Of a DNA stretch of 24,938 nucleotides, positions 7 to 737 are shown one piece after another. The notes under the pieces are model-generated. The model ran no database searches. It saw only the letters and a program-made list of their open reading frames with translations, and had not been told where the DNA came from. The stretch is from positions 1 through 24,938 of the forward strand of contig JASHUK010000040.1 in NCBI GenBank assembly GCA_030040055.1, in the 5' to 3' direction. Made by a program: the position numbers and the translations under genes. This stretch comes from Nitrososphaerales archaeon. GTDB taxonomy: Archaea > Thermoproteota > Nitrososphaeria > Nitrososphaerales > Gagatemarchaeaceae. Positions within the stretch are counted from its first letter, which is position 1. The number at the start of each line of letters is the position of its first letter.

Positions 7-432
<426 letters not shown>

Positions 433-622
433 GATGAGGTATTCCCGGCGGAGGCGCAATGAACCCTATGCACGGCGAAGGTTCCCATGTCAAGTGGGCG
501 GCCCACGCGGCCCGTAGCAGGATTCGAATTTTCGAGGAGGAACAGTCCTGGTGAGTTGGAGAGGGCGCCGCCTGTACCTTGACTCGTACGGCGCAACCAA
601 AGGATTAGGTGATAATCGTTAT

Positions 623-700
623 ACCCAACGCGCCGATTTTACGGCGGTCTCCTCCGCCTTTCCGCGGAGACGAGTTTTTCTGATTACTCCACTGTTGGGT
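623..700. ncRNA. Candidate structured RNA: 7-bp closing stem with three internal hairpins (cloverleaf-like); strand uncertain
   Basis: Pairings: ACCCAAC(623-629)/GTTGGGT(694-700), CGCCG(631-635)/CGGCG(642-646), GTCTCC(647-652)/GGAGAC(666-671), GAGT(672-675)/ACTC(686-689). No canonical T-loop or D-loop. Confidence 0.4.
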
Positions 701-723
701 GACTTCTAGGACGCAGGATATCG

Positions 724-737
724 ATATAAAACTTCCG
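724..737 (-). promoter_or_regulatory. Archaeal BRE plus TATA box (minus strand CGGAAGT-TTTATAT); predicted TSS about 700
   Basis: Exact match to the cRnaANt BRE consensus directly upstream of TTTATAT. A C/A initiator lies at 701/700, 30 nt from the first T of the TATA box. Confidence 0.6.

Follow-up and report, generated by a model that had tools for sequence, protein, structure and literature searches.

What does a cloverleaf-like element in the trailer of a ribosomal RNA (rRNA) operon encode, and on which strand? The question is raised by the window, by which we mean the whole 24,938-nucleotide (nt) stretch of contig JASHUK010000040.1 from a Nitrososphaerales archaeon (assembly GCA_030040055.1). 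The first 439 nt of the window are the 3'-terminal part of an archaeal 23S rRNA, which ends at position 439, and the element, at 623–700, begins 184 nt past this end. A preliminary description had considered two readings, an unannotated small RNA transcribed from the minus strand or a signal on the pre-rRNA, that is, on the plus strand, and had preferred the latter; an Rfam search and a covariation analysis among relatives were named as checks. The minus-strand small RNA is the part of that description that has held up. The pre-rRNA signal has not, because the promoter exists on the minus strand only and the homologues lie away from rRNA genes. We conclude that the element is very probably the gene of a small RNA with its own promoter, which belongs to a structured family related to transfer RNA (tRNA), and we favour, with a probability of about 0.6 for the reading as a whole, that this tRNA-derived RNA acts in trans as a non-decoding tRNA mimic.

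Fold, conservation and strand

Folding of 623–700 reproduces the four-way junction of the preliminary description, with a 7-bp closing stem plus three hairpins. Both strands can adopt it, with minimum free energies of −31.0 (plus) and −32.4 (minus) kcal/mol and z values of about −3.6 on either strand relative to dinucleotide shuffles. No Rfam family matches the element at the gathering threshold or at E ≤ 10, in searches with 451 nt and with 96 nt, so that the proposed search returned no known family even at the laxer cutoff, and ARAGORN calls no tRNA in the window or at 24 homologous loci. Readings as a C/D-box, H/ACA, hammerhead, K-turn, signal recognition particle Alu or RNase P RNA were dropped, as the defining boxes are missing from the sequence and Rfam is silent.

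BLAST among relatives gave four clear homologues (in G058, G003, G059 and G009), and a covariance model built from these and the window copy (R1) finds a full-length match in 29 of the 55 genomes of the window's genus, three of which (G064, G067 and G068) carry two full-length copies each. A further 72 matches came from a second model (R2) and a pattern scan of metagenomes. The collected family comprises 78 homologues, of which 75 are distinct; they come from the genus, from one sister genus and from metagenomes taken as peat or wetland on the basis of their Joint Genome Institute dataset prefixes. The RNAs are 66–92 nt long, with a mode of 70–72 nt, and the window copy matches both models over its full length (105 bits with R1, 85 bits with R2). 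In an order-wide sample of 151 genomes from 20 families, matches are confined to two genera of the window's own family; as far as searched, the RNA is thus found in one family of GC-rich Nitrososphaerales, taken to be inhabitants of peat soil.

Conservation was counted in an alignment of all 78 sequences (A4), in which the four helices are retained. Standard pairs fill 93.2% of the paired cells, against 28–56% when the 3' partners are slid, and the covariation score of 0.432 compares with 0.153 in shuffles, none of 500 shuffles reaching it. Compensatory changes on both sides occur at 14 of the 21 pairs and support all four helices, so the covariation analysis comes out in favour of the fold. 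All seven pairs of the closing stem (helix 1) show such changes, as do three of the four pairs of helix 2, which corresponds to the tRNA D stem and is paired in 99.3% of cells. In helix 4, the T-like stem, 100% of cells pair, the outer pairs covary and the inner three are invariant, and the base of the central-arm stem is both conserved and covarying. Comparison across homologues thereby excludes a chance fold or a chance promoter.

The bases that hardly change are located in junctions and loops (N-G-U-G, AAYCAGAAYA, C-G-CC, GG-AGAM and CCG-UAAAMU-CGG, in which AAYCAGAAYA is the family consensus of the D-like loop). The junction G and C, G692 and C630 in the window, are each kept in 59 of 67 sequences; the base that follows this pair in the linker is U in all 67, and the next one is G in 62 and A in 5. 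About 35 loop and junction positions stay almost unchanged from one subgroup to another, although compensatory changes have rewritten the stems of these subgroups. This shows purifying selection both on the structure and on the loops AAYCAGAAYA and UAAAMU, neither of which is a tRNA sequence. The central arm is the least conserved part. It ranges from CCC-GAAA-GGG to about 40 nt and remains a stable hairpin at every length, its loops share no common sequence, and a 7-nt loop with U33 is never found. The two conformers previously suggested for this arm rest on a slippery CUCC repeat that is peculiar to the window's subgroup and not conserved, and a conformational switch is for that reason rejected.

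The strand is decided by the flanking sequence. Over the 63 distinct homologous loci with enough flanking sequence, 66 of 68 motif matches to TATA-like hexamers begin at −31 to −28 relative to the first stem base on the RNA strand, and no TATA-like hexamer occurs at that position on the opposite strand. The promoter that had been read on the minus strand of the window, a transcription factor B recognition element (BRE) and TATA box aimed at A700, is therefore matched at the same distance in the homologues, and this agreement points to A700 as the probable start. Across the family the first base is A or G and is preceded by a pyrimidine. The base after the closing stem is A in 57 and G in 12 of 75 sequences, and the 3' flank is T-rich, with at least four T among the next ten bases at 44 of the 63 loci. 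As this promoter and this tail are conserved on the minus strand only, the RNA is assigned to that strand. G-U pairs, which had been taken to favour the plus strand, leave the matter undecided when counted over the alignment (37 G-U against 55 A-C cells), and most of the A-C cells stem from one terminal mismatch and one bulge. By eye, the tRNA genes of the window's genome also have A/T-rich, TATA-like boxes about 30–37 nt upstream and T/C-rich trailers, although the family promoter motif set scored only one of these boxes. The short-leader promoter and T-rich trailer are features that the small RNA has in common with these genes. The parts of the window copy are listed in Table 1.

Table 1. 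Coordinates of the small RNA, its parts and its flanking features in the window
Feature	Position	Strand	Details
Aldo/keto reductase gene	788–1783	−	Ends 88 nt before A700 and 51 nt upstream of the promoter box
Promoter	724–737	−	BRE-like CGGAAG (737–732) and TATA box TTTTATAT (731–724), about 24–31 nt before A700
Small RNA, 78 nt	623–700	−	Predicted start A700; last stem base 623, then discriminator-like A622; model matches and covariation
Closing (acceptor-like) stem, 5' strand	694–700	−	ACCCAAC (RNA 1–7); double-sided changes at all seven helix-1 pairs
Bulge and junction base	692–693	−	Bulged A693, then G692, which can pair with C630; directly after the 5' strand of the closing stem
Linker U-G	690–691	−	RNA 10–11, equivalents of tRNA U8 and R9; U in 67/67
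D-like arm	672–689	−	Stem GAGU/ACUC (689–686, 675–672); 10-nt loop AAUCAGAAAA (685–676)
G671	671	−	G26-like; precedes the central arm
Central arm, at the place of the anticodon arm	651–670	−	Stem UCUCCGC/GCGGAGG, loop GGAAAG
Junction AGAC	647–650	−	Equivalent of tRNA variable region 44–48; GGAGAM conserved family-wide
T-like arm	631–646	−	Stem CGCCG/CGGCG, 6-nt loop UAAAAU; core CCG-UAAAMU-CGG invariant
Closing stem, 3' strand	623–629	−	GUUGGGU (RNA 72–78); partner of 694–700
3' flank, presumed termination zone	597–622	−	A622, then pyrimidine/T-rich; no long T run in the window copy

A further conserved box, CTATAGAG, which has a palindromic core, is observed in many homologues (e.g., L068, L076, L077 and L065) at about −52 to −45, roughly 20 nt upstream of the TATA box; no such box was seen in the window. 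A regulator may bind there, or the box may belong to a second or divergent promoter.

Relation to tRNA

Re-reading of the junction gives the closing stem, a one-base bulge, a conserved G-C pair and then U-G, with linkers of 2, 1, 4 and 0 nt as in tRNA; in one subgroup, a continuous 7-position stem takes the place of the bulge. The closing and T-like stems add up to 9–13 bp, mostly 10–12, which is close to the roughly 12 bp expected for the acceptor and T stems of a tRNA. In the position mapping that we propose (laid out in alignment A6), U8, R9, G10-C25, A14, R15, Y16, G18, A21, G26, A44, G45, Y48, G53-C61, U54 and A58 would be retained, and G19 (replaced by A), one of positions 55 and 56, the anticodon loop and the G19:C56 elbow pair would be lost. 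The first D-like stem pair, the equivalent of G10-C25, is G-C in 71 of the 75 distinct sequences and G-U in four; the first and last bases of the D-like loop are A, as equivalents of A14 and A21, and the linker G and the CCG/CGG core are invariant. The T-like loop UAAAMU has 6 nt, in contrast to the 7-nt T loop of tRNA with U54-U55-C56-R57-A58. Position 16 of the D-like loop and position 59 of the T-like loop, whose counterparts lie side by side in the tRNA elbow, show perfect covariation (U/A in 47 and C/C in 20 sequences), a pattern that shared ancestry could also explain.

Searches with the family's own model connect the RNA to specific tRNAs. A phylum-wide scan with R2 at E ≤ 0.001 matched nine genomes outside the window's family, and in eight of these the match is a real tRNA: the initiator tRNA-Met of another genus in all six of its genomes (35–39.5 bits) and the tRNA-Val(CAC) of a further genus in both of its genomes. 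The ninth match (G296; 23 bits, E 6e-4) is not called as a tRNA by ARAGORN and looks spurious. When five of the outside genomes were rescanned at E ≤ 10, almost nothing was found beyond the one tRNA. The matched tRNAs read AGAUC at the variable-region junction. The D arm of the initiator tRNA in the window's own genus, UGGGGAAGCCAG, and that of the small RNA, UGGGGCAAUCAG, are almost alike; the D-like loop resembles the initiator D loop AGCCAGGAUA, and in the alignment the T-like arm is one base short of the tRNA T arm GGUUCAAAUCC. In most copies the closing stem is followed by an A, as A73 in archaeal initiators. The A1:U72 pair, likewise a feature of these initiators, occurs in subgroup C and the window copy, and most other copies of subgroup A have A1 opposite C.

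In the window's genus, the initiator tRNA-Met gene is apparently split by two or three short introns, with insertion sites in the D loop, in the T loop and close to the anticodon or variable region (L248 at about 1467–1604 in G056; L256 at about 1470–1603 in G011), and it is not called by ARAGORN. The introns are the reason why R2 cannot match the gene, and no initiator tRNA was found in the window's own genome, which is 74% complete. The small RNA differs from this gene in having no introns.

Compared with archaeal initiator tRNA-Met (RF00005), the small RNA thus shares the cloverleaf, the linker lengths, the core-base equivalents, the AGA(U)C variable region and the D arm. It differs in the T loop, UAAAMU instead of UUCAAAU, in the replacement of G19 by A, in a bulged acceptor stem of 5–8 bp, and in a variable arm in place of the 7-nt anticodon loop; two initiator hallmarks, the CAU anticodon and the three G-C pairs (GGG/CCC) of the anticodon stem, were looked for and not found, and tRNA finders do not detect it. 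Given the variable "anticodon" arm, the 6-nt T loop and the loss of G19 and C56, the RNA cannot decode. Judged from sequence comparison, it is a relative of the archaeal initiator tRNA and not a member of that group. The earlier statement that the element is not a tRNA is accordingly right with regard to decoding, but it misses that the RNA is tRNA-shaped and, by the R2 matches and the linkers, tRNA-related.

The alternative that survives best, albeit as an unlikely one, is that the tRNA likeness is convergent, and that a structured protein-binding or catalytic small RNA has arrived at a generic four-way junction. The lack of a match to the Rfam tRNA model would fit such an origin, as would the 6-nt T loop and the A-rich loops, which are unlike those of tRNA. 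Convergence does not readily explain why the significant outside matches of R2 are chiefly tRNAs, one per genome, why linker lengths and at least ten core positions are as in tRNA, or why the D arm is nearly that of the genus's initiator.

Proposed role and candidate partners

In the reading that we favour, a tRNA mimic acting in trans, the BRE and TATA box would start transcription within a base or two of A700, and transcription would stop in the T-rich flank just past the closing stem. The RNA would then fold into an L shape and act as a stable mimic that occupies, or is acted on by, a protein for which the body of a tRNA, and not its anticodon, is the recognised part. Such a protein could be an enzyme of end processing or modification, an initiation factor or an enzyme of aminoacyl transfer. 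The parts of this reading are not equally firm. The identity of the element, i.e., gene, strand, structure, family and tRNA relation, is very likely to be correct, whereas the tRNA-mimic mechanism taken for itself is tentative, and we infer the exact ends, the L shape, the action in trans and the kind of partner from the features described above.

Several observations weigh against this reading. The Rfam tRNA model and ARAGORN are both blind to the RNA, so that the case for tRNA ancestry rests on the matches of its own model and on the position mapping. Subgroups B and D have G1-C72 and not A1:U72, which weakens a specifically initiator-like role. The T-rich terminator signal is weak in the window copy, and start, end and stability of the transcript are predictions from the DNA. 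The RNA is absent from closed or near-complete genomes, including G011, G013, G006 and G024, and its presence on a tree of the canonical cysteinyl-tRNA synthetase (CysRS) requires 13 changes, no fewer than with shuffled labels. From this scattered distribution and the absence from complete genomes it follows that the small RNA gene is accessory and dispensable, and in some lineages it could be a slowly decaying relic. Neither the gene neighbourhood nor co-occurrence points to a partner protein.

A more specific alternative would make the RNA a dedicated non-ribosomal amino-acid carrier, CCA-tailed and charged by an enzyme for which the acceptor end alone suffices, that feeds an amide- or thiol-forming pathway and is kept from translation by the altered elbow and the missing anticodon. 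The candidate synthetase is a tail-less CysRS paralogue, without the anticodon domain, that is present in 25 of the 29 RNA-bearing genomes and in 12 of the 26 without the RNA. This co-occurrence is not significant given the relatedness of the genomes (p about 0.125 in a sign test of independent pairs on the tree), and some complete genomes have the paralogue but no RNA. In the window 7.4 kb separate the two genes, which are far from each other elsewhere, and an A or G stands at the discriminator-like position in place of the U73 that Cys identity requires. The link to the CysRS paralogue leans negative, and we give little credence to the carrier or to its variant, a regulatory decoy of the initiator tRNA by which aIF2 or a tRNA-modifying enzyme would be titrated. 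The window's own genome was also scanned for antisense targets of the conserved 10-nt loop; the one match falls in a coding-like region, and no conserved target emerged.

Other stable RNAs with a tRNA body, or the upper half of one, but no working anticodon include the tRNA-like domain of transfer-messenger RNA (tmRNA), mascRNA, plant-mitochondrial t-elements and the module of YrlA, a bacterial Y RNA. These are handled by tRNA-recognising proteins, retain the canonical T loop and elbow, and either belong to larger RNAs or are cut from precursors. The small RNA, unlike these, is a whole cloverleaf with an altered elbow, predicted to be a primary transcript from its own promoter on an archaeal chromosome. 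The staphylococcal non-proteinogenic tRNA-Gly and other tRNAs set aside for non-ribosomal aminoacyl transfer are tRNA paralogues with altered T arms that serve outside translation, but keep their anticodon and are charged by the normal synthetase; the small RNA lacks an anticodon and an encoded CCA, and no transferase gene is linked to it. The tRNA-like element 3' of the Haloferax 5S rRNA, cited in the preliminary description, is a processing signal on the rRNA strand. Both are tRNA-like folds near an rRNA operon, but the element described here is encoded opposite to the rRNA strand under a promoter of its own, and in relatives it is unlinked to rRNA.

No description of this RNA family was found in the literature or in Rfam. 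To our knowledge, few structured small RNAs have been described from soil Thaumarchaeota, and our literature search found none reported for the non-ammonia-oxidising, peat-dwelling lineages. Clear covariation, a promoter of its own and a delimited phyletic range make this new RNA family well supported, and alignment A4 and the models R1 and R2 provide a covariance-model seed suitable for Rfam. The family illustrates that a tRNA gene can be turned into a non-decoder. Should the RNA be a tRNA mimic, it would offer a natural handle on archaeal proteins that read the tRNA body without anticodon and elbow, and should it be an amino-acid carrier, it would represent a novel type of non-ribosomal acceptor.

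Genomic context and distribution

The genes around the RNA vary with subgroup and include aldo/keto reductase, ATP-binding cassette (ABC) ATPase, GDSL lipase, M3 oligoendopeptidase, major facilitator superfamily (MFS) transporters and others, on either side and without strand bias. Clustering of open reading frames (ORFs) over 103 loci revealed synteny at the level of subgroups only, with no common partner and no mobile-element or defence genes. In G008 (L068, 1387–1581), a block of about 200 bp with promoter and RNA has the opposite orientation to that in G049 and G062 (L076 and L072), although the genes on both sides are the same; it thus behaves as an autonomous cassette.

These neighbourhoods bear on the possibility of a cis-acting leader, a riboswitch-like aptamer or attenuator in which the T run after the closing stem serves as a switchable terminator. 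A conserved core of junction and loops is typical of aptamers, and pepF, the M3 oligoendopeptidase gene, lies downstream on the same strand at 19 loci, which belong to subgroups D and B' and, with the gene farther away, to the G009-like subgroup; its start, by ORF calls, is mostly about 40–120 nt from the RNA and 0.7–1.4 kb away at four loci. We read this adjacency as subgroup synteny. The downstream gene is on the same strand at 35 loci and on the opposite strand at 25, and the gene families are unrelated. In the window, where the convergent 23S end lies downstream, in G003 and at many other loci, the next downstream gene is convergent or absent. Together with the inverted cassette in G008 and the lack of a conserved alternative pairing with the flank, this makes a cis-acting role improbable.

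The patchy presence, with no copy in complete genomes, and a tRNA frame with destroyed anticodon loop and T loop are what a decaying initiator-tRNA pseudogene without a function of its own would leave behind. The absences themselves appear to be real, as repeating the search with laxer settings in the 26 genomes of the genus that lacked a match gave nothing genuine, the best hit (in G018) lying inside a coding sequence; at the syntenic site in G024, the 1.4-kb segment that bears the RNA is missing. A pseudogene would not be expected to show the purifying selection described above, or to keep its promoter in every copy and a stable hairpin in the central arm throughout, and it has a slim chance at best. 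Subgroup D is the type found in the closest relatives of G059 on the CysRS tree, although the RNA of G059 itself is of subgroup A.

The pre-rRNA reading, in which tRNase Z or RNase P would cut a tRNA-like signal for processing or termination within the 23S trailer, is scarcely tenable: the element's position 184 nt past the 23S end, the equally good plus-strand fold and the better fit of G-U pairs to the plus strand in a few sequences (the outermost pair in subgroup A, the closing stem in G009) are set against homologues that are not beside rRNA and the absence of any common plus-strand signal to match the conserved minus-strand promoter and tail. The 3-kb locus of G003 contains no rRNA, nor do the loci of G059, G058 and G009, which span about 7–8 kb. 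The copy in G003 follows a secreted-protein gene, copies elsewhere precede pepF, and subgroups B–D are found among metabolic genes. The setting in the rRNA trailer, which had coloured the first interpretation, is no family trait, and homologues in such unrelated places make the link to rRNA incidental; the annotation is corrected in that the element is unrelated to rRNA processing.

Two loci contain further sequences close to the RNA. In G059 (L028, about 1630–1670), a stretch resembling the 3' half of a tRNA (GGGTTCGAATCCC and acceptor-like bases) is located about 60–100 nt upstream of the promoter side of the RNA and may be the relic of an integration site. In G003 (L002, 1620–2000), about 380 nt beside the promoter have a GC-rich look by eye and no obvious long ORF on the strand shown; they match no Rfam family at the gathering threshold.

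The 23S end of the window is itself part of a repeat of about 55 nt (423–481, plus strand), which consists of the last 17 nt or so of the 23S rRNA (CCCAACGCAGGATGAGG) and the first 37 nt or so of the trailer. At least 13 copies are present on one contig of G018 (L237, G018:C26), and runs occur in G008, G016, G019 (L238, G019:C4) and G005. The copies are one-stranded within each run that was checked and mostly 0.5–3 kb apart, and one of those in G019 is located at the end of the 23S rRNA. The C/D-box small RNA family sR10 is matched weakly by the copy in the window, with 24.5 bits and thus below the gathering score of 45. The repeat is possibly a C/D-like small RNA family, a mimic of a processing site or the boundary of a cassette.
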